Counted from the first letter of the stretch, positions 2,814 through 40,329 are shown. The stretch: 64,000 bases of DNA from Candidatus Nanoarchaeia archaeon (GCA_028279725.1 JANQNE010000007.1:99406-163405); one strand, 5' to 3'. Numbers and translations: made by a program. Notes: generated from the sequence alone by a model not told the origin.

Positions 2814-3211
2814 TGAGATCAAAAAACTGGAAAAACACACTTGCTCGTGACACGATGGTCTTAGGTGGCCTTCCATTCTACTTTATTGTCGCAGTCAGGG
2901 CAGTAATCGGACAGTTCGCACCTTTTGTAACACAGCTTGTCATCGCACTTATTGTCATACTCATCCTATCCAGGATGATCAAAAACTCAGACCAGTATAT
3001 TGCACGTGCACTTGTCCTTGTAGTTTTCACATCAATATTCTACAAAGACTCATTCTTCACAGTCTTTGCATCTTTATTATGGTTGATGATGATCATATCT
3101 GCACTTTACTTGAAGGTCAAAAGCAGCGAAATAAGCAAAGGGATATTCATTGGGATTATCGCAGCCATAATAAGCCATTACCTAACTCCTGTAATCATAC
3201 AATTGATTTAG
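2810..3211 (+). CDS. Small integral membrane protein, hypothetical. Translationally coupled to the Aas-like gene through an ATGA overlap.
   Basis: Four predicted TM segments. The start overlaps the stop of the upstream gene. Confidence 0.4.
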   Translation: MMRSKNWKNTLARDTMVLGGLPFYFIVAVRAVIGQFAPFVTQLVIALIVILILSRMIKNSDQYIARALVLVVFTSIFYKDSFFTVFASLLWLMMIISALYLKVKSSEISKGIFIGIIAAIISHYLTPVIIQLI

Positions 3212-14676: not shown

Positions 14677-14809
14677 TGCGGGAGACGAGGTTTGAACTCG
14701 CGCAGGCACTAAGCCACAAGGCGTTTGAAGGCGCAGGCTTCGAACCTCAAAAACCGCCAGGTTTTTCGCCGCCTCAACCTTGCCCGTTTGACCACTCCGG
14801 CACTCCCGC
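14677..14809 (-). tRNA. tRNA-Leu(GAG) with an intron of about 49 nt at the canonical 37/38 position.
   Basis: Read on the minus strand. Acceptor GCGGGAG / CUCCCGC plus A73. D-arm CCGGAGUGGUCAAACGGG. Anticodon stem CAAGG / CCUUG. Loop UUGAGG|intron|G. Long variable arm UGGCUUAGUGCC (type II). T-arm GCGAG-UUCAAAC-CUCGU. The intron-exon junctions fold into bulge-helix-bulge: a 4-bp helix U32-A35 pairs with the intron 3' end and is flanked by 3-nt bulges. CCA is not encoded. Confidence 0.65.
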
Positions 14810-25749: not shown

Positions 25750-25845
25750 ATGATACGCACAATAAAAAAGATTTTTGCTGCATTAGTAAAACTTAGTCCA
25801 ATCACAATTGAGATTGAAAGAGAAAATTATGTTTTACTGAGGTGA
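25750..25845 (+). CDS. Possible 31-aa micro-ORF (MIRTIKKIFAALVKLSPITIEIERENYVLLR).
   Basis: It is not in the ORF track, which cuts off at 60 aa. It is preceded by an exact 23-nt copy of the RBS/start cassette of island gene 2. Confidence 0.15.
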   Translation: MIRTIKKIFAALVKLSPITIEIERENYVLLR

Positions 25846-31507: not shown

Positions 31508-31948
31508 TTGGGGAATGGGATGAGAAACGATAATACTTCAGGAAGAAGATGTACTGTAATTCTAAAAAAAGGTCATGTTACTAAATTCTATGAGACAAAT
31601 AGTCTTCAGGAGCAAGTCAGAGAGTATAGGATGAGCTTTGGACCAGAACTTACGATATCAGGAACAGTAATAAAAGAAAATAACGGCTACTTATCAGTCT
31701 TATCAGATATAGATGGGATCGGATCCGAACATCCTTTATGTGTTGAAGAATCACTTAACTGCAACCCAGTAGAAAAACAAGACGGACTTGAACATAGTGT
31801 TGCAAACATCTTTCATAACTTACACAACTGTACAAGGCCTGATTTCAAACCAGATCAGGGAGTTGAAACAAGACCTTCTGAACTTTCTCCAGTAGATACT
31901 CAATACAAAGTAGAAATCTATCAGAGAGATATTCTTATGAAACTTTAA
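31508..31948 (+). CDS. Hypothetical protein.
   Basis: 146 aa with several cysteines. No recognisable domain. Confidence 0.3.
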   Translation: MGNGMRNDNTSGRRCTVILKKGHVTKFYETNSLQEQVREYRMSFGPELTISGTVIKENNGYLSVLSDIDGIGSEHPLCVEESLNCNPVEKQDGLEHSVANIFHNLHNCTRPDFKPDQGVETRPSELSPVDTQYKVEIYQRDILMKL

Positions 31949-33372
31949 GCTGCTTGCTTTATTCTTTTGGCTAAAACAGTTGCCAGATAATTAGAAGTGC
32001 CTGTAACTTGCACAACATCAAACATGACACCAATATAATCTATCTTATATTTAGATTCAATAAACTCATAATTAACTCCTGATTTTGCTGTTGTAAAATG
32101 ATCATGATTGTTTCCATAAGTCAAAAAAGAGAAATAAGCTATCAGGTTCTTGAAATTGTTGTTGCTTAAATTAAAAGAATCAGTTAATATTCCGTTTTTC
32201 TTCGCAATCCCCCTCAAAACTTTTCTCCCATAGATATCAGTATTGTTCTTTGCTTCAACATGCTCTATCCTGGAGATAAAAGCACCATACTCCTGCCTTA
32301 TTTTATTCTCTAATAAAGAAACTATCTTGGAAGCAACCTCTCTTGCATTGCCTGATGTATAAGATTCTGCAAATTGCCTAAATTGCTTTTTCTCTTCTAC
32401 CCTATCTTGCGTAAATTTTGAAGGTATTTCAGGAACAAAAAGCCTTACTCTTTGTATATTACTTAATGCATCTTCAATCTCTTTCCTAAGCTCATCAGCT
32501 ATCACTAGTATTGACTTTGTAAGGTTTGCTTTCTTCTGCTCTCTGACGATTATCCTATCCAGTGTATTCTTTTGCTGTGATAATGTATTGTCCATCAGTG
32601 AGATCATTTTTTGTTTTTGTTCTTGTATCCTTCTGAAAACACCATAATCAATCCTGCTTGATCCAAACAACTGCCTTATCTGCAGCGTGTATATGCTTTT
32701 CACAGAATTATACCAGCTTTTTATCTGTTCGATCTGCTCTTCCAATGATTCTCTTAAGACCTTAACTTCTTCTGACAACTTTTCATCGATCTCTTTCATC
32801 TCCAAAAGTTCAGAAAATAAGGTGCCGACCATATCTCTTCTCTTATGTAATTTTCCGACTATTGAATTAAAAACTGATTCGAGATCTTTAGTATTTTTTA
32901 TATCATTCATGATACTGATCAGCTGCATAACATATTCAGAATCTTTTTTGATCAGCTTCTCTGTTATTTTTTCTTCCCTGTATTCTTCTTTTTCCTCTTC
33001 AATCAGACTTTCTATCTTAGAAAAAAATAACTTATCTAGTCTTGTTAAAGCATACTTCTCAAAAAAAGCTTGTTTTTCCGCCTTACTCTGAATCTTAGCA
33101 AGATGACTGACAATTTTTGGCTCTCTTCGTAAAGATGAGATAAAATTCTTAGCATTATTAAGCTCCTTGACTATAGAAACAGCTATCTCTCTTTTATTAT
33201 CTAACTTCTGCCTAAGAGACTTAGCATGTCCCACTATCTCTGCTTCTATCTTCTCATCAATTCTCTCTCTTTTTAGAAAATCTCTCAATCCTCTCAGAAC
33301 TTTCCTCTTTATTTCAGCAGGATCAGCAGTAGAATTTGCTGAACCCCTTATCAGGTTTCTCAAAAATTCCAT
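31945..33372 (-). CDS. Hypothetical coiled-coil protein.
   Basis: 475 aa. Largely helical and K/E-rich. Confidence 0.35.
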   Translation of the reverse strand: MEFLRNLIRGSANSTADPAEIKRKVLRGLRDFLKRERIDEKIEAEIVGHAKSLRQKLDNKREIAVSIVKELNNAKNFISSLRREPKIVSHLAKIQSKAEKQAFFEKYALTRLDKLFFSKIESLIEEEKEEYREEKITEKLIKKDSEYVMQLISIMNDIKNTKDLESVFNSIVGKLHKRRDMVGTLFSELLEMKEIDEKLSEEVKVLRESLEEQIEQIKSWYNSVKSIYTLQIRQLFGSSRIDYGVFRRIQEQKQKMISLMDNTLSQQKNTLDRIIVREQKKANLTKSILVIADELRKEIEDALSNIQRVRLFVPEIPSKFTQDRVEEKKQFRQFAESYTSGNAREVASKIVSLLENKIRQEYGAFISRIEHVEAKNNTDIYGRKVLRGIAKKNGILTDSFNLSNNNFKNLIAYFSFLTYGNNHDHFTTAKSGVNYEFIESKYKIDYIGVMFDVVQVTGTSNYLATVLAKRIKQAA

Positions 33373-34566: not shown

Positions 34567-35025
34567 ATGGGGTTATTAAATATGTTTGGAAAGTCTAAAG
34601 AGAAGAAAGAAGGCTTTGAATTCCCTGAAAAAGAAGACTTAGACATCCCTCCAGCTCCTCCTTCTGTCACTGAAGAACCAACAGAACTTCCTAGCTTCCC
34701 GGTAAAAGAAGAGAAAGTAGAAGTTCCAGAAATTTCTCCTGTTGATGAAGCTGAGGACGAGGCTGTTCAGATCGTAAAAGAAGGTCTTGAAGAAAGGGAA
34801 TCTTTAGAATTAGCAAAGCCGCTGTACATAAAATATAAGATGTACAAAGCTATGTTAGATGAGGTTAGTCAGATTAAGATTATTCTGAAAGAATCAGAAG
34901 ATACCTTGACAAGACTTGCTGATTTTAAAGACGACGAAGACAAGGAATTTGCAAAGTGGCGCAGGGAACTGGATGACATTCAAAGAAAGCTTATCTATGC
35001 TGATAAAGTTTTATTTGGCAAATAA
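34567..35025 (+). CDS. Hypothetical small helical protein, paralogue 1 of a triplet, with an acidic P/E-rich N-terminus.
   Basis: The C-terminal 70 aa, KPLYIKYKMYKAMLDEVSQIKIILKESEDTLTRLADFKDDEDKEFAKWRRELDDIQRKLIYADKVLF, align position-by-position with the next gene. Confidence 0.4.
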   Translation: MGLLNMFGKSKEKKEGFEFPEKEDLDIPPAPPSVTEEPTELPSFPVKEEKVEVPEISPVDEAEDEAVQIVKEGLEERESLELAKPLYIKYKMYKAMLDEVSQIKIILKESEDTLTRLADFKDDEDKEFAKWRRELDDIQRKLIYADKVLFGK

Positions 35026-35046
35026 AAATTAAAAGGTGGTACTAAA

Positions 35047-35289
35047 ATGGAAGAACTTCAAGGAGAAACTATGCCGGTCTTTGTTAGGGTCGATGAATAC
35101 AAAGACGTGCTAGATGTTATGAATCTTATCAAAAGCAAGATTGGTGAAGCTAGAGAAACACTGGCTAAGCTGAACGATCTAAAGAATGAAGAAGACGCAG
35201 AACTAGAGCTTTGGCACACTAGCTTGGAAGAAATCGAAAGAAAAGTAGATTTTGTTGACAAGACACTGTTCGAACCATCTGCTCTTTAG
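35047..35289 (+). CDS. Hypothetical small helical protein, paralogue 2.
   Basis: MPVFVRVDEYKDVLDVMNLIKSKIGEARETLAKLNDLKNEEDAELELWHTSLEEIERKVDFVDKTLF. Shared motif P-x-F/Y-(I/V)-(K/R)...YK..LD...IK...E...TL..L.D.K.EED.E...W...L..I.RK....DK.LF. Confidence 0.4.
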   Translation: MEELQGETMPVFVRVDEYKDVLDVMNLIKSKIGEARETLAKLNDLKNEEDAELELWHTSLEEIERKVDFVDKTLFEPSAL

Positions 35290-35733
35290 GTGAACAATAT
35301 GGCTGAGAAAAAAGAAACAGATGTTTTCTTTGTTGGTATTAAGGACCCTATAGAGATCAGAAGAAGTATTCTTGAATCACTAAAAGGAACTGTTGAAGAT
35401 CTTCAGAGATTCGAGAGATTCAAAGCAGTAAGGGAAGAAAAAGCCAACACAGCTGCTGCATTAAAAGGTCAGGTTAAAGAGATCCAGAAGCTTATCAATA
35501 AGCTGAAATCAGAGCTTCCAAAAGGAGACTTAAGGATCAAGCTTGGACTTGAACACGCAGCTGTTGAAGAAGAAAAAGCTAAGAAAGAAGCTGCTAAAAA
35601 AGACAAGAAGAAAAAGAAAGCAAAAAAAGTAGTTAAGAAAGAAGTAAAAGTAAAGCCAAAGGAGCTTTCTGAGCTTGAAAAGCTAGAATCTGAACTTAGC
35701 AACATAGAATCTGCCCTAGGCAAGATTTCTTAA
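35290..35733 (+). CDS. Hypothetical small helical protein, a divergent paralogue 3 with a lysine-rich C-terminus.
   Basis: DVFFVGIKDPIEIRRSILESLKGTVEDLQRFERFKAV follows the same pattern. A KKEAAKKDKKKKKAKK tail. Confidence 0.35.
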   Translation: MNNMAEKKETDVFFVGIKDPIEIRRSILESLKGTVEDLQRFERFKAVREEKANTAAALKGQVKEIQKLINKLKSELPKGDLRIKLGLEHAAVEEEKAKKEAAKKDKKKKKAKKVVKKEVKVKPKELSELEKLESELSNIESALGKIS

Positions 35734-35800
35734 TTTTTTTATTTTATTTCTGGTTTTTTAGTAAGTTTTTTATAATACTCTCTAGTTCTTAGACCTTGAT

Positions 35801-36000
35801 GCGGAGGTGCCGGAGATTGTCGAGTTCATGAGACTCGCGACTGGAATGGTCAAACGGGATGGACTCAAGGCATTTGAGTGTTGAGTGCTCGTAAAGAGTG
35901 CGATGAAAATATCAATGTAAGTCATCCATTGGCTTAGTGCCTACGAGGGTTCGAAAGGTTGACGATGTAATCGGCAACAACGAAAGACCCTTCCTCCGCA
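35801..36000 (+). tRNA. tRNA-Leu(CAA) gene interrupted by three introns: D-loop about 31 nt, anticodon loop 37/38 about 54 nt, T-loop 59/60 about 31 nt.
   Basis: Acceptor GCGGAGG / CCUCCGC plus A73. After removing the three intervening segments the D-arm is CCGGAG|UGGUCAAACGGG, identical to the tRNA-Leu(GAG) at 14.7 kb. Anticodon stem AUGGA / UCCAU with loop CUCAAG|A. Variable arm UGGCUUAGUGCC identical to the other Leu. T-arm GAGGG-UUCGAA|A-CCCUU. Each junction can be drawn as bulge-helix-bulge. The T-loop junction shows a 4-bp UUCG/CGAA helix flanked by 3-nt bulges. The D-loop junction shows CCGG/CUGG. The mature length is about 84 nt. A T-run follows. Confidence 0.55.
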
Positions 36001-36011
36001 TTTTTTATTTT
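36001..36011 (+). terminator. Oligo-T terminator after the multi-intron tRNA.
   Basis: TTTTTTATTTT immediately 3' of the acceptor end. The RNase J ATG is 16 nt downstream. Confidence 0.35.
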
Positions 36012-36016
36012 GAAAA

Positions 36017-37348
36017 ATGGTAGAAATATACGCAATAGGTGGATACAACGAAGTTGGCAAGAACATGACTGCCATCAGAGTAGACAACGAGATCATAATT
36101 CTAGATATGGGTCTCCATCTTCCGAACTATATCAACTTCACAAAAGATGAAGATGTATTTGCAGCAGATCCTGCTGACCTTATAGAAGCTAAAGCGATTC
36201 CAGATGATTCAGTCTTACACCAATGGAAAGATCAAGTCAAAGCAATAATTCCAACACATGCTCATCTAGATCATGTTGGTGCAATCCCTTATCTTGCAAA
36301 AAACTATGACTGTCCTGTAATCTGCACACCATTCACAGCTGAAGTTATAAAAGCGATAACAAGAGATGAAAAGATAAAACTAAAAAATCAGATTAAGATC
36401 CTTAACTCAAACTCGATAATATCAATAACAAAAAATATCAAGATAGAATTCATATATGCAACACACTCCACCCCTCAGACAGTTATGGTTGCTATACACA
36501 CAAAAGAAGGGATAATTCTTTACTGCAATGATTTCAAATTTGATAACTTCCCGACAATAGGTTCTAAACCCAACTACAAGAGGCTAAAAGAGCTTGGAAA
36601 GCAAAACGTAATAGCTATGATCGTAGATTCATTATACTGCACCGAAAAAAGAAAGATGCCTGGGGAAAACATAGCTAGAGAGATGTTAAAAGATGTTATG
36701 ATCGAGACAGACTCTGAAGGAAAAGCAGTCATAATAACTACATTCTCATCACACCTTGCAAGATTAAAAAGTATTATGGAATATGGAAAAAAGATGAACA
36801 GGAAGATTGTATTCCTGGGAAGAAGTCTTTCAAAATATATCCAGGCTGGAGAAAGTGTAGGATTGATTGACTTCTCCAAAGATGCTGAAATTGTAAAGTT
36901 CGGTGGAGAGATCAAAAGAAAGCTGAAAAAGATAGAAAAAGATGGTGTAGAAAAATACTTATTGATAATAACAGGTCATCAGGGAGAGCCAAAAGCAACA
37001 CTATCAAAGATGGTTGATGGGGAACTTCCATTCAAGTTCAAGAAAGGCGATCATGTTATATTCTCATGTAATGTTATCCCAACCCCCACAAATATCGAAT
37101 TAAGAAAGATATTGGAAGGAAAGCTGCAGAAATTTGGAGTCAGGATGTTCAAAGGAGTACATGTAAGCGGTCATGCTGCAAAAGAAGATATAAGGGACCT
37201 TATTGAATTTGTAAAACCAAAACATATCATTCCTGGTCATTGTGAAAAAGAGGAAAGTGAAGCTCTTTTATTCCTCACAGAAGAGATGGGTTATAAAAAA
37301 GACAAGGACGTCCACCTTATAAAAAACGGCAAAATTCTCAATATTTAA
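36017..37348 (+). CDS. rnj: Ribonuclease J, an archaeal beta-CASP MBL-fold RNase.
   Basis: HAHLDHVGAIPYL (HxHxDH), beta-CASP motifs, and 443 aa, which is typical of archaeal RNase J. Confidence 0.7.
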   Translation: MVEIYAIGGYNEVGKNMTAIRVDNEIIILDMGLHLPNYINFTKDEDVFAADPADLIEAKAIPDDSVLHQWKDQVKAIIPTHAHLDHVGAIPYLAKNYDCPVICTPFTAEVIKAITRDEKIKLKNQIKILNSNSIISITKNIKIEFIYATHSTPQTVMVAIHTKEGIILYCNDFKFDNFPTIGSKPNYKRLKELGKQNVIAMIVDSLYCTEKRKMPGENIAREMLKDVMIETDSEGKAVIITTFSSHLARLKSIMEYGKKMNRKIVFLGRSLSKYIQAGESVGLIDFSKDAEIVKFGGEIKRKLKKIEKDGVEKYLLIITGHQGEPKATLSKMVDGELPFKFKKGDHVIFSCNVIPTPTNIELRKILEGKLQKFGVRMFKGVHVSGHAAKEDIRDLIEFVKPKHIIPGHCEKEESEALLFLTEEMGYKKDKDVHLIKNGKILNI

Positions 37349-37394
37349 CAGAAACGTTTATATATTGGCTTAAGCTTTCTATTGCCCAGGGGGG

Positions 37395-38147
37395 ATGTAT
37401 ATGAAACTTACTTTAGCAGAACCAAACTATCTAAAAGACAGTATTTCGATAATCTCAGAGCTAGTTAACGAAGCTTCTTTCAAGATCACATCTAACGCAG
37501 TTGAGATGGTAGCGATGGACCCTGCAAACGTTGCAATGGTCGTTTTCAAGCTTCTTTCATCATGCTTTGCAGAATATGATGTAAAAGAAGACACAAGTAT
37601 CGCGATTAATCTTAATAATCTTAAACAGATCCTGAAAAGAGCAGGCTCAAGTGATGTTTTAACATTAGAGTTAGACAAAGAAAACAAGCTTAAGATACAG
37701 ATCAAAGGTAATACTACAAGAACTTTCTCATTGCCTATAATAGAATTAGAAGAAAAAGAACAGAAGGTTCCTGACCTAAGCTTTGCTGCATCAATAAAGA
37801 CTTCAACAACACTTTTCAATGAAGCTATTGAAGACGCTGATATTGTAGCTGAATCTGTTGTTTTTGAGGCTGAGCCTAAAAAACTGACACTTATGGCTGA
37901 AGGAGATCTTTCAAAAGCTAAGATCGACATAAATGATGGAGACTCAACTAAGATAATCACAGAAGGTGAAGATAAGGTAAAAGCAAAATACTCCATAGAA
38001 TATCTGAAGAAGATGACTGGAGGATCAAAGCTTTCTAACGAAGTCAGCATCCAGCTAAACAAGGATTATCCATTGAAACTGGAATACAAAAGCGTCGACA
38101 AGGTTATGCTTTCATTCATACTCGCCCCTAGGGTAGAGAATGAATAA
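37395..38147 (+). CDS. pcn: DNA polymerase sliding clamp PCNA.
   Basis: 250 aa. The two-domain PCNA pattern. N-terminus LAEPNYLKDSISIISELVNEASFKI. Confidence 0.8.
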   Translation: MYMKLTLAEPNYLKDSISIISELVNEASFKITSNAVEMVAMDPANVAMVVFKLLSSCFAEYDVKEDTSIAINLNNLKQILKRAGSSDVLTLELDKENKLKIQIKGNTTRTFSLPIIELEEKEQKVPDLSFAASIKTSTTLFNEAIEDADIVAESVVFEAEPKKLTLMAEGDLSKAKIDINDGDSTKIITEGEDKVKAKYSIEYLKKMTGGSKLSNEVSIQLNKDYPLKLEYKSVDKVMLSFILAPRVENE

Positions 38148-38171
38148 TTTATTTTTTCTTTTTAGAATTGA

Positions 38172-38621
38172 TTATTTCTTATTGCCAAAATAGAAAACAT
38201 CATTGATGTCAACATCACCTGGCTCAAAATCACCGCTTCTTGGTTTCGCCTCTTCAACTTTCTTCCCTTCCTTAACTTCAGCCTTAAGTGTCTGCTGTTC
38301 AGGTTTAGGAGCAGGTCTGCTTGCAAGATCTTTCACCATATCTCTCAAAGCCTTAAGCTCTCCAGCCATATTGCCAACTTCTGCCCTTAGCTTATCTGTC
38401 TCTTCTTTAAGTCTCTTCTCACTAAGTTCAGAAAGATATTGCATCTTTCTGTTAATCATATTCAGAATTTCCTGGCTTACCTCTTCTTTCTGCATCCCGT
38501 TCAGCGCCTCTTTACTGATAACCCTCGTCGCTTCTTTTATAGCTTCTTCTTCTGTCGCTATTCCGTGCTTCTTAAATTCATTAACAAGCTGATTTATCTT
38601 TACTGTTTGTTTGACATCCAT
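38172..38621 (-). CDS. Hypothetical coiled-coil protein.
   Basis: 149 aa and helical. No recognisable domain. Confidence 0.3.
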   Translation of the reverse strand: MDVKQTVKINQLVNEFKKHGIATEEEAIKEATRVISKEALNGMQKEEVSQEILNMINRKMQYLSELSEKRLKEETDKLRAEVGNMAGELKALRDMVKDLASRPAPKPEQQTLKAEVKEGKKVEEAKPRSGDFEPGDVDINDVFYFGNKK

Positions 38622-38651
38622 GATTTTCAGAAATTATAGAAGATATTTAAA

Positions 38652-39767
38652 TTATTCTTTTTTGTTTAAATACCTTGTAAGAAACTCCTGCCTGTACTCT
38701 TCAAAACTTCCTTTCTCTATCTCTTTCCTTGCCTCTTTTATCATATTCTGCAAAAAATAAAGATTATGTATCGTCGCCAATCTCAAACCGAAATTTTCCC
38801 TGGAATTCAGCATAAAATTAACATAAGCTTTTGAAAAATTCTTGCATGTATAACATTTACACCCTTCTTCTATAGGTGCATTTTCATCAATAAACTTTCC
38901 CCTGTCAAGCCTTATCTGTCCATCTCCCGTAAACAAGCTCCCTCTTCTTGCATTCTGCGCAGGAAATATTGAATCAAATATGTCTGCACCCATTGATATT
39001 GAATTCAGTATCTCTTCAGGAGTGCCCATACCCATTACATACTTTGGCTTCTCCTTATCGATATTCTTCATCCCAGCTTTTATCATCTCATAAGTCTTCT
39101 TCCTGTCCTCTCCGATGCATAACCCTCCAAAAGCAACACCATCAAAATTCAATCCATCAATAAATTTAGCGCTCTCAGAACGCAGATCCTCGAATATTCC
39201 GCCCTGTATTATCCCAAACATCATCTGCTTGTCATTCTTATGAGCTTTCAGACATCTCCCAGCCCAGTCATGCGTCCTATTCATAGAAGCCTTAACATCT
39301 GATTTTTTATCATCATGATGCGGAACATGATCAAATGCCATCGCAACATCACTCCCAAGTTGATTCTGTACTTTTACAGAATCTTCCGGCCTAAACCACC
39401 CGCTCTTTCCGTTGATAGGATCTTTGAACTTCACGCCTTCATCAGAGTATTTGACGAAAAAATCATCAAGCAGCACTTGAAATCCGCCGGAATCAGTAAA
39501 TATCCCTCTATCCCAGTTCATAAACTTATGGATGCCTCCAAATTCCTCGATCAATTTAGAGCCAGGCTTTAAAGAAAGGATAAAAGCATTTGATATCAGG
39601 CATTCAGTGCCCATCTCTTTAAGCTCTTCAGGACTTATATTCTTAACATTTGCCTTCGTCCCAACTGGCATAAAAAACGGAGTCTTCAACCTCCCATGCG
39701 CTGTATTTAGATATCCAGTCCTTGCTTCATTGTCTTCTTTTTTTATCTTGAACATATCAGGAAACAA
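38652..39767 (-). CDS. tgt: Queuine/preQ1 tRNA-guanine transglycosylase, bacterial-type short form.
   Basis: GRLKTPFFMPVGT, DSGGFQV, FGIIQGG, the LFTGDG region, and the zinc motif CKCYTCKNFSKAYVNFM. 371 aa. It lacks the long archaeosine-TGT C-terminal PUA region. Confidence 0.8.
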   Translation of the reverse strand: MFPDMFKIKKEDNEARTGYLNTAHGRLKTPFFMPVGTKANVKNISPEELKEMGTECLISNAFILSLKPGSKLIEEFGGIHKFMNWDRGIFTDSGGFQVLLDDFFVKYSDEGVKFKDPINGKSGWFRPEDSVKVQNQLGSDVAMAFDHVPHHDDKKSDVKASMNRTHDWAGRCLKAHKNDKQMMFGIIQGGIFEDLRSESAKFIDGLNFDGVAFGGLCIGEDRKKTYEMIKAGMKNIDKEKPKYVMGMGTPEEILNSISMGADIFDSIFPAQNARRGSLFTGDGQIRLDRGKFIDENAPIEEGCKCYTCKNFSKAYVNFMLNSRENFGLRLATIHNLYFLQNMIKEARKEIEKGSFEEYRQEFLTRYLNKKE

Positions 39768-39843: not shown

Positions 39844-40329
39844 GTGTTGGATAACGTAATCCCTTTTTTAAGTGAATGGATGTTCAATTACATAAAGAAC
39901 AGAGATCTGATCACTAAAAAGATCGAGAAGATTGAAGAATATATGAATAAAAGCTATATCTTCGTAAAATACAAAGATAAAAAACAAATATTCTTCATAG
40001 AACCAGAAATAACAAATATTGACGAGACATTAGAAAATATCAATTCCGCAAAAAAAGAGACTGATTCTGAATGGTCCAGCCTGATTGTATTGAATTCTTT
40101 AAACAATCTAAAAGCTATGCAGGATAACTGGAAAACGCTTTCAAAAGATACGAAGTTCAGCATCATGATGATCAATCCTTTCTCTGTCCTGGACAAAAAA
40201 TGGATAATCTCACCTTATGTTCATTCCAAGATCACTGAGCCAAAAACGCTAAAACAGGGCTTAAAAGCCATGTTTGACAGCGTAGAGCGCCTCTCCTTGG
40301 ATGACTTAAAAAGGAAGATCAAGCAATAA
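39844..40329 (+). CDS. Hypothetical protein.
   Basis: 161 aa. No recognisable domain. Confidence 0.3.
   Translation: MLDNVIPFLSEWMFNYIKNRDLITKKIEKIEEYMNKSYIFVKYKDKKQIFFIEPEITNIDETLENINSAKKETDSEWSSLIVLNSLNNLKAMQDNWKTLSKDTKFSIMMINPFSVLDKKWIISPYVHSKITEPKTLKQGLKAMFDSVERLSLDDLKRKIKQ

Follow-up and report, generated by a model that had tools for sequence, protein, structure and literature searches.

A tRNA-Leu(CAA) gene with three putative protein-spliced introns in a Woesearchaeota genome, and a candidate guide element in its anticodon-loop intron

The stretch of DNA analysed here (64,000 nt from Candidatus Nanoarchaeia archaeon, GCA_028279725.1 JANQNE010000007.1:99406-163405; hereafter the window, with positions counted from its first nucleotide) carries at positions 35801-36000, on the plus strand, what is very probably a functional Woesearchaeota tRNA-Leu(CAA) gene with three protein-spliced introns, the precursor of which would be cut at bulge-helix-bulge (BHB) motifs by the splicing endonuclease EndA and then religated. 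A tRNA-Leu(CAA) gene with three introns had been proposed in a preliminary description of this DNA, and in-silico splicing, BHB geometry and the comparison with 37 + 120 related genes all bear this proposal out. At the level of its sequence, the gene has every property of the multi-intron BHB tRNA class, which is an already established class. More novel than the three-intron gene itself are a candidate guide with a kink-turn (K-turn) in its 37/38 intron and the existence of relatives with four predicted introns.

The acceptor stem is formed by GCGGAGG (35801-35807) and CCTCCGC (35993-35999), which are fully paired, and A36000 is the discriminator. On the 3' side of the discriminator, T6-A-T4 is found at 36001-36011, and the ATG of a gene encoding RNase J at 36017 leaves a spacer of 16 nt, so that the 7-bp acceptor stem, the discriminator, the oligo-T and the gap to RNase J are all located where the preliminary description had placed them. 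We removed 35816-35846 (31 nt), 35870-35923 (54 nt) and 35957-35987 (31 nt) and joined 35801-35815, 35847-35869, 35924-35956 and 35988-36000. The resulting 84-nt product is recognised by ARAGORN as a class II tRNA-Leu(CAA). Its acceptor stem has 7 bp and its D-stem 3 bp, the D-loop contains GG, the anticodon loop reads CUCAAGA, the variable arm is long, the T-loop is UUCGAAA and the discriminator is A73. Removal of the three segments, at the lengths first announced, does restore a cloverleaf. When only introns 1 and 3 were deleted, ARAGORN itself detected the 54-nt intron in the anticodon loop. The anticodon CAA lies at 35866-35868, in exon 2, and the CCA end is not encoded in the gene. The spliced product has exactly the D-arm CCGGAGTGGTCAAACGGG and the variable arm TGGCTTAGTGCC of a tRNA-Leu(GAG) gene located at 14677-14809 on the minus strand, as had been reported. 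The four exons are collinear inside 200 nt, which is not the organisation of a split or permuted tRNA gene. At 31, 54 and 31 nt, the introns do not correspond to group I or group II introns (hundreds of nucleotides, with a ribozyme core), and no match to an Rfam intron family was obtained at E<=5.

The exon and intron boundaries, the cloverleaf, the BHB geometry, the orthology and the presence or absence of introns in relatives are derived directly from the data. Upstream of RNase J, 37 of 80 fetched loci (the genome set) contain a tRNA-Leu gene that is related to the window tRNA in its spliced form, and the introns of these orthologues were counted by splice-aware alignment to the spliced window tRNA. 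The 84-nt product is identical at 82 of 84 positions to the single-intron orthologue of locus L055, and at 79 of 84 to the genes of L046, L049, L050 and L162. Among the 37 genomes, 18 (including L055) have one intron, at 37/38 only, 13 have two, five have three (L022, L024, L036, L041, L054) and one has four (L034). At least two introns are thus present in 19 of the 37 syntenic orthologues. The 37/38 intron is found in all of them (37/37), many also share an insertion site at ~31/32, and exon 1 and exon 2 are contiguous in 30. The two introns that had been assigned to non-canonical sites of the D-loop and the T-loop lie at positions 15/16 and 59/60, and both sites recur in other species: the 15/16 intron is present in L005, L006 and L054 in the genome set and in L090, L137 and L155 in the metagenome set described below, and the 59/60 T-loop intron in L022, L024, L031, L034, L036, L037 and L041.

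To these orthologues we added 120 further genes retrieved by scanning with an exon-2 pattern (the metagenome set), which contain from zero to four introns. No intron was detected in 61 of them; 36 have the 37/38 intron only, about 9 combine it with a T-loop intron, two (L090, L137) combine it with the 15/16 intron and one (L155) has four insertions, the remaining genes being cut at a contig end or showing other patterns. The gene of L034 (3592-3818) requires four excisions, in the D-loop and at 31/32, 37/38 and 59/60, to give an ARAGORN-valid 84-nt tRNA-Leu(CAA). Similarly, the 250-nt gene of L155 (pattern match at ~3021-3043, minus strand) requires four excisions, at 15/16, at 37/38, in the variable arm and in the T-loop, to give an ARAGORN-valid tRNA-Leu(CAA). 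With four predicted introns each, these two genes exceed the maximum of three stated for archaeal tRNA genes (PMC4033280, PMC8450103). Across both sets, the 15/16 and 59/60 introns are absent from most genes and the exons are conserved. The gene of L162 has the acceptor stem of the window gene and a T-loop intron, and lacks intron 1. The exact combination 15/16 + 37/38 + 59/60 was found in the window only. In addition, the window matches an independent Logan assembly without any difference (100% identity over 4,488 bp, introns 2 and 3 included); the sequence is found in Logan run SRR20820740.

The junctions were scored with a rule in which a 4-bp central helix (H) separates two 3-nt bulges and cleavage occurs after the second bulge nucleotide; this archaeal splice-site rule is reportedly that of Marck & Grosjean (2003). 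The outer and inner flanking helices are designated h and h'. A BHB or a relaxed variant of it is present in the exact register at all three junctions. Intron 1 scores H=4, h=0 and h'=4, with an inner helix extended by a hairpin. Intron 3 scores H=4 and h=5 at 59/60 and H=1 at 60/61, and the 60/61 register of the preliminary description was dropped on these scores. Both registers give the same mature sequence because of a repeated A, and the 3' boundary of exon 3 slides by this one A (35955 or 35956) with no change in the product. Among arbitrary pairs of splice sites in the precursor, H=4 occurs in 2.2%, and in 0.13% it is accompanied by a flanking helix of 4 bp or more; introns 1 and 3 reach this 0.13% standard at exactly the pair that the cloverleaf requires. 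The rule is also satisfied at shift 0 in nearly all junctions of the orthologues. The 59/60 intron forms a strict hBHBh' (H=4, h=5, h'=4-6) in L022, L024, L031, L034, L036 and L037, and is reduced to a 13-nt version in L041. Moreover, exon and intron covary at the T-loop intron, UUCG in the exon being associated with CGAA or CGAG in the intron, and UUCA with UGAA. Intron 1 of L137 is identical to that of the window at 25 of 33 positions, and its hairpin shows compensatory changes. Introns 1 and 3 of the window are identical to each other at only 19 of 31 positions, which does not support a recent duplication of one of them.

The minimum free energy (MFE) of the precursor is -67 kcal/mol (z = -2.8). 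The unconstrained MFE fold holds the acceptor stem, the BHB of intron 1 and a near-equivalent of that of intron 3. For the latter, the inner hairpin is formed and the BHB is shifted by one pair (T-stem plus U54-A35987, then UCG/CGA at 35951-35953 / 35981-35983).

Several observations weigh against a functional gene with three introns. None of the three BHBs is strict. All the junctions had been described as BHB-like, which holds for their register, but intron 1 has no outer helix and in this departs from the strict motif, and intron 2 scores H=3, h=6 and h'=4, with one C.A mismatch in its central helix CUCA/UAAG. This TAAG variant is also found in L002, L006 and L055, and the four pairs are all formed in most other scored orthologues. 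In the same way, the T-loop helix UUCG/CGAA keeps its 4 bp and its 3' bulge AGA, but the second of the 3-nt bulges previously described is replaced, on the 5' side, by a 4x2 internal loop. A blind BHB scan of the region returned dozens of chance motifs; a BHB alone is therefore weak evidence, and comparative data were used. In the MFE fold, ACUCAA of the anticodon loop pairs with UUGAGU of intron 2, the BHB of which is not formed, and forcing all three BHBs has an in-silico cost of ~11 kcal/mol. In the folding model, this cost suggests a conformational switch between a duplex of the intronic guide with its target (see below) and a splicing-competent fold. The unspliced gene is missed by default ARAGORN and by the Rfam tRNA model, whether the latter is run at its gathering threshold or permissively. 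These misses are uninformative because introns are located outside the anticodon loop. With default settings, ARAGORN and Rfam detect only tRNA-His in the window; the intron mode of ARAGORN adds tRNA-Leu(GAG) and not the candidate gene, and no further hidden tRNA gene was revealed in the window by scans for T-arms and GC islands. A motif search and phmmer with an M. jannaschii query detected no EndA in the 64-kb window or among the 201 loci fetched, a small sample of DNA that is silent on the genome, and RtcB was not found in the window. Relaxed specificity of EndA is consequently assumed from the literature, and a relaxed-specificity endonuclease acting on the window gene is reasonable to suppose. 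Finally, a second tRNA-Leu(CAA) gene, free of introns, could lie outside the 64-kb window.

Some of these points would also be expected of a decaying pseudogene, i.e. a single-intron tRNA-Leu(CAA) gene hit by two disabling insertions in the D- and T-loops and no longer processed: neither ARAGORN nor Rfam picks up the unspliced gene, its BHBs are relaxed and another copy could exist outside the window. We consider such decay very improbable, as the exons are intact, with no stem mismatch and with 82 of 84 positions identical to L055, and the BHB register of both insertions gives back the exact cloverleaf. Other species, too, have insertions at these two positions, accompanied by compensatory changes between exon and intron, and the conserved place upstream of RNase J, the TATA-like box and the oligo-T tract have been kept. 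A partly wrong parsing, in which the 37/38 intron alone is real and the other segments either stay in the tRNA as enlarged D- and T-loops or are excised at other boundaries, seems to us even less probable. If 31-nt inserts were retained at 15/16 and 59/60, they would wreck the tertiary core formed by G18G19 and the T-loop, and in relatives that lack these segments, the D- and T-arms are uninterrupted and have this sequence. It is true that the boundaries are predicted from the DNA, that those of intron 3 slide by one A and that intron 1 has no outer helix; nevertheless, when the junctions are shifted at constant length, H=4 together with a flanking helix is obtained in the proposed register only. 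Lastly, GC-rich intergenic DNA with tRNA-like pieces, or a chimeric contig, might be invoked, all the more as short BHB-like motifs are common by chance. Such an artefact is effectively refuted by the 84 of 84 exon positions that form a cloverleaf, by their near-identity (82/84) to an orthologue in another genome, by the identical independent assembly and by dozens of related genes with the same architecture.

For a functional gene with three protein-spliced introns, the following pathway is proposed. Transcription would yield a precursor of ~200 nt. At each junction, EndA would recognise the BHB and cut in the two bulges, 4 bp apart, thereby excising the introns at 15/16 (D-loop), 37/38 (canonical) and 59/60 (T-loop). 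An RtcB-type ligase would connect the four exons, and the resulting 84-nt class II tRNA would then receive its CCA. That the gene is transcribed, that EndA cuts its precursor, that the exons are ligated and how broad the specificity of EndA is are all inferred. As the three BHBs do not overlap, the order of splicing would not be forced, unlike in relatives with adjacent 31/32 and 37/38 introns. In the BHBs of introns 1 and 3, the 5' strand of the D-stem and nucleotides 54-57 of the T-loop are engaged, so that the mature D- and T-arms would fold only after excision. The coordinates of the gene and of its parts are given in Table 1. The spacing of the TATA-like box TTTATAAT agrees with that of an archaeal TATA box, which would be centred ~26-27 nt ahead of the transcription start; a scan for sigma-70 promoters has no bearing on this archaeal promoter call.

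Table 1. Coordinates of the tRNA-Leu(CAA) gene, its putative signals and introns, the conserved element of intron 2 and the downstream gene
Feature	Position (strand)	Description
TATA-like box	35769..35776 (+)	TTTATAAT; ~28 nt 5' of the mature end; putative archaeal promoter, read from the sequence
Exon 1	35801..35815 (+)	tRNA positions 1-15: acceptor 5' strand, U8, G9, D-stem 5' strand CCGG, A14, G15
Intron 1	35816..35846 (+)	31 nt; position 15/16; relaxed BHB, HBh' type
Intron 1, central helix	35810-35813 / 35841-35844	CCGG / CTGG
Intron 1, bulges	35814-35816 and 35845-35847
Intron 1, inner helix	35817-35826 / 35832-35840
Exon 2	35847..35869 (+)	tRNA positions 16-37: remaining D-arm, G26, anticodon stem 5' strand AUGGA, loop CUCAAG
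Intron 2	35870..35923 (+)	54 nt; canonical position 37/38; hBHBh' with a mismatch
Intron 2, outer helix	35859-35863 / 35925-35929	Anticodon stem
Intron 2, central helix	35864-35867 / 35918-35921
Intron 2, inner helix	35871-35874 / 35914-35917
Conserved element of intron 2	35874..35906 (+)	Inside intron 2
Candidate guide	35874-35880	UUGAGUG, complementary to A31-A36
Box D-like motif	35881-35884	UUGA; part of the K-turn
Covarying stem	35885-35890 / 35896-35901	Part of the K-turn
3-nt bulge	35902-35904	GAU; part of the K-turn
GA	35905-35906	Part of the K-turn
Exon 3	35924..35955 (+)	tRNA positions 38-59: A38, anticodon stem 3' strand, variable arm UGGCUUAGUGCC, T-stem 5' strand GAGGG, T-loop UUCGAA
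Intron 3	35956..35986 (+)	31 nt; position 59/60; relaxed BHB (hBH, inner helix offset)
Intron 3, outer helix	35945-35949 / 35988-35992	T-stem
Intron 3, central helix	35950-35953 / 35981-35984	UUCG / CGAA
Intron 3, 3' bulge	35985-35987	AGA
Intron 3, inner hairpin	35958-35966 / 35970-35978
Exon 4	35987..36000 (+)	tRNA positions 60-73: A60, T-stem 3' strand CCCUU, acceptor 3' strand CCUCCGC, A73
Oligo-T tract	36001..36011 (+)	TTTTTTATTTT; likely archaeal terminator or 3' trailer, from its sequence
RNase J	36017..37348 (+)	Archaeal; Pfam RNase_J_b_CASP, Lactamase_B, RMMBL; synteny anchor

Inside intron 2, we identified a conserved element whose layout in the family is UUGAG-U(G/A) / NUGA / G-stem-loop-C / RAU / GA. 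It was found in 34 of 38 genes with a strict parser, and in ~70 of the 83 intron-bearing genes; outside the window, its occurrences are spread over loci L002-L074 and L083-L198. From an alignment of 41 distinct sequences, 95.6% of the cells of the stem are paired, versus 31-47% in slid controls. Compensatory changes affect six of the six pairs, and none of 500 shuffles matched the observed values. The stem, of 6 bp, is flanked by NUGA (box D) and RAUGA(A/U)(G)A (box C), as in a K-turn, and the GA...UGA columns are invariant. The D-like box is CUGA in 8 of 35 parsed genes; the window copy combines UUGA, a degenerate D-like box, with GAUGAAA. A hammerhead-like reading of CUGAUGAG and its hairpin was rejected, the 3' element being GAUGA and not GAAA and the geometry fitting a K-turn. 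Directly 5' of the D-like box, UUGAGUN is present in 61 of 77 parsed genes, with G in the fifth position, opposite C34. In the window, G35876 is the fifth nucleotide upstream of the D-like box and pairs with C34 (35866), which is the N+5 register of box C/D guides. The duplex, of 6-7 bp, is shorter than that of typical guides. No further RUGAUGA/CUGA pair that could form a second C'/D' motif was seen in the introns or the adjacent exons, and the element is not bipartite. The window, L002, L006, L074, L137 and L162 contain a tandem UUGAGUG-UUGAGUG (35874-35887 in the window), which results from the D-like box being UUGA; in the MFE fold, it is the second copy that pairs with the anticodon loop. 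Fibrillarin and L7Ae, searched for in the same way as EndA, gave no match in the window or the fetched loci, a small sample of DNA that says nothing on the genome.

On these grounds, the 37/38 intron could be a minimal guide built on one K-turn, in the order guide, box D, closing stem-loop and box C, and would direct 2'-O-methylation of C34 of its own tRNA by L7Ae, Nop5 and fibrillarin; we put forward this reading tentatively, at somewhat less than an even chance. The guide might act before excision, within the precursor, or afterwards, as a free (circular) intron, its layout being that of a circularly permuted half of a C/D small RNA (sRNA), a suggestion we hold just as tentatively. If the guide were real, it would be the second intron-encoded tRNA modification guide, structurally distinct from that of pre-tRNA-Trp, and the smallest natural box C/D-like guide architecture. 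Such a role would also provide a functional reason for retaining the 37/38 intron and would account for its presence in 37 out of 37 syntenic orthologues.

The intron-encoded box C/D guide of euryarchaeal pre-tRNA-Trp was reportedly described by Clouet-d'Orval (2001) and Singh (2004), and sR47 of Pyrococcus abyssi is said to have been described by Nolivos (2005). Pre-tRNA-Trp is the only known case of an intron-embedded guide (PMC11408192). As in intron 2, the guide of pre-tRNA-Trp (Haloferax volcanii, Pyrococcus sR50) is located in a 37/38 intron, with K-turn signatures, a sequence antisense to the anticodon loop and the fifth nucleotide before box D opposite C34 (PMC7994747, PMC11408192). 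In both cases, pairing of the guide with its target precludes formation of the BHB, and vice versa. Unlike pre-tRNA-Trp, intron 2 has only one K-turn (guide, D-like box, stem-loop, C-like box) and no second C'/D' pair, its duplex has only 6-7 bp, the tRNA is tRNA-Leu(CAA) and a second target such as U39 is not evident. In Pyrococcus, C34 of tRNA-Leu(CAA) is converted to Cm34 with the trans-acting RNA guide sR47 (PMC5558902, PMC7994747). The predicted target and reaction of the intron 2 guide, RNA-guided 2'-O-methylation of C34 of tRNA-Leu(CAA), are therefore those of sR47 of P. abyssi. However, sR47 acts in trans, as a free-standing sRNA of the canonical type with two motifs, whereas the candidate guide sits in the intron of its own tRNA.

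Multi-intron tRNAs are the main evidence for the co-evolution of EndA and tRNA gene structure, and have been studied mostly in hyperthermophilic Crenarchaeota. The multi-intron tRNA genes of the Thermoproteales and of other Crenarchaeota and Thaumarchaeota were reportedly described by Sugahara (2007/2008) and Marck & Grosjean (2003). BHB tRNAs with several introns are well documented for Crenarchaeota, Thaumarchaeota, N. equitans, M. kandleri, Korarchaeum and ARMAN (PMC4033280, PMC8450103). Genes of the Thermoproteales (Pyrobaculum, Caldivirga, Thermofilum) and of other Crenarchaeota and Thaumarchaeota likewise have up to three short protein-spliced introns, at 37/38 and at non-canonical sites (PMC4033280, PMC8450103). 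As in the window gene, each intron of these archaea is bounded by a strict or relaxed BHB, and the genes are missed by standard finders unless non-canonical introns are searched for. In contrast to these archaea, the host of the window is a mesophile-like, AT-rich DPANN Woesearchaeote, not a member of TACK. Its EndA is probably, according to the literature, of the alpha4 type with an L3 loop and not an (alpha-beta)2 enzyme with the Crenarchaea-specific loop, and one orthologous gene ranges from one to four introns across Woesearchaeota species. The preliminary description had considered a multi-intron gene unusual in an AT-rich, DPANN-like context. In this lineage such a gene is not unusual, given its frequency in the orthologues (19/37) and the prior link between DPANN and disruption of tRNA genes: in the DPANN survey of Kaneta 2018, which included a Woesearchaeota metagenome-assembled genome (MAG), the 'L3' loop of alpha4 EndA was tied to more tRNA gene disruption, and incomplete predicted tRNA sets hinted at undetected disrupted genes (PMC5829648). 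ARMAN-1/2 (Micrarchaeota) are also DPANN with disrupted tRNAs, the introns of which are non-canonical or multiple, and relaxed hBH / HBh' / BHL junctions, and have an epsilon2 EndA (Fujishima 2011, PMC3239211; Hirata 2012, PMC3488258); the host of the window belongs to another DPANN lineage, probably with another EndA architecture. In the literature searched, we found neither this gene, its intron positions (15/16 + 37/38 + 59/60) or the series of one to four introns, nor the picture obtained here for Woesearchaeota (19/37 multi-intron, same sites reused). Such a series could serve to date intron gains and losses, to test the movement of BHB introns between sites and to probe the range of cutting by DPANN EndA. 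In addition, default finders miss such genes, which makes DPANN genomes seem poor in tRNAs and lowers estimates of their completeness.

The window is archaeal, with an RNase P RNA and a signal recognition particle (SRP) RNA of archaeal type, and AT-rich (36% GC). The closest relatives of its RNase J (50-65% identity) all come from Woesearchaeota / Nanoarchaeota MAGs, which places the host in the Woesearchaeota (DPANN), in line with the DPANN-like context suggested at the outset. The order tRNA-Leu(CAA) - RNase J is kept in many of the fetched Woesearchaeota loci (L009-L072), and in both the window (35801-39755) and L001, RNase J is followed by PCNA, a small open reading frame (ORF) and a tRNA-guanine transglycosylase (TGT). 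The oligo-T tract is located inside the 16-nt spacer between the tRNA and RNase J, and RNase J may for this reason rely on read-through from the tRNA promoter. The TGT (38652-39755, minus strand) has 367 aa and consists of the TGT domain alone (PF01702, E=1e-131). Typical archaeosine tRNA-guanine transglycosylases are presumably longer. The substrate of this TGT, G15, lies directly 5' of intron 1.

No Pfam match (E<=0.001) was obtained for the ORFs at 34567-35733 (+), 38172-38621 (-), 39880-40329 (+) and 31945-33372 (-). These Pfam-less ORFs include three small consecutive ones directly upstream of the tRNA (152, 80 and 144 aa, the last rich in lysine and glutamate) and one of 475 aa. An intergenic segment at 25775-25845 (+) gave a weak match to SNORD38, a C/D-box snoRNA family of Rfam (25.8 bits, E=0.94, far under the gathering score), and may be a free-standing C/D sRNA or a chance match. 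The tRNA-Leu(GAG) gene has a 49-nt intron, without any K-turn or guide element. This intron was placed at 38/39 by ARAGORN, a position dropped in favour of the canonical 37/38 on the BHB scores (H=4, h=6, h'=2 at 37/38, versus 2, 0 and 1 at 38/39). The gene escapes the default filters of Rfam and reaches 40.8 bits in permissive mode (gathering threshold 29).

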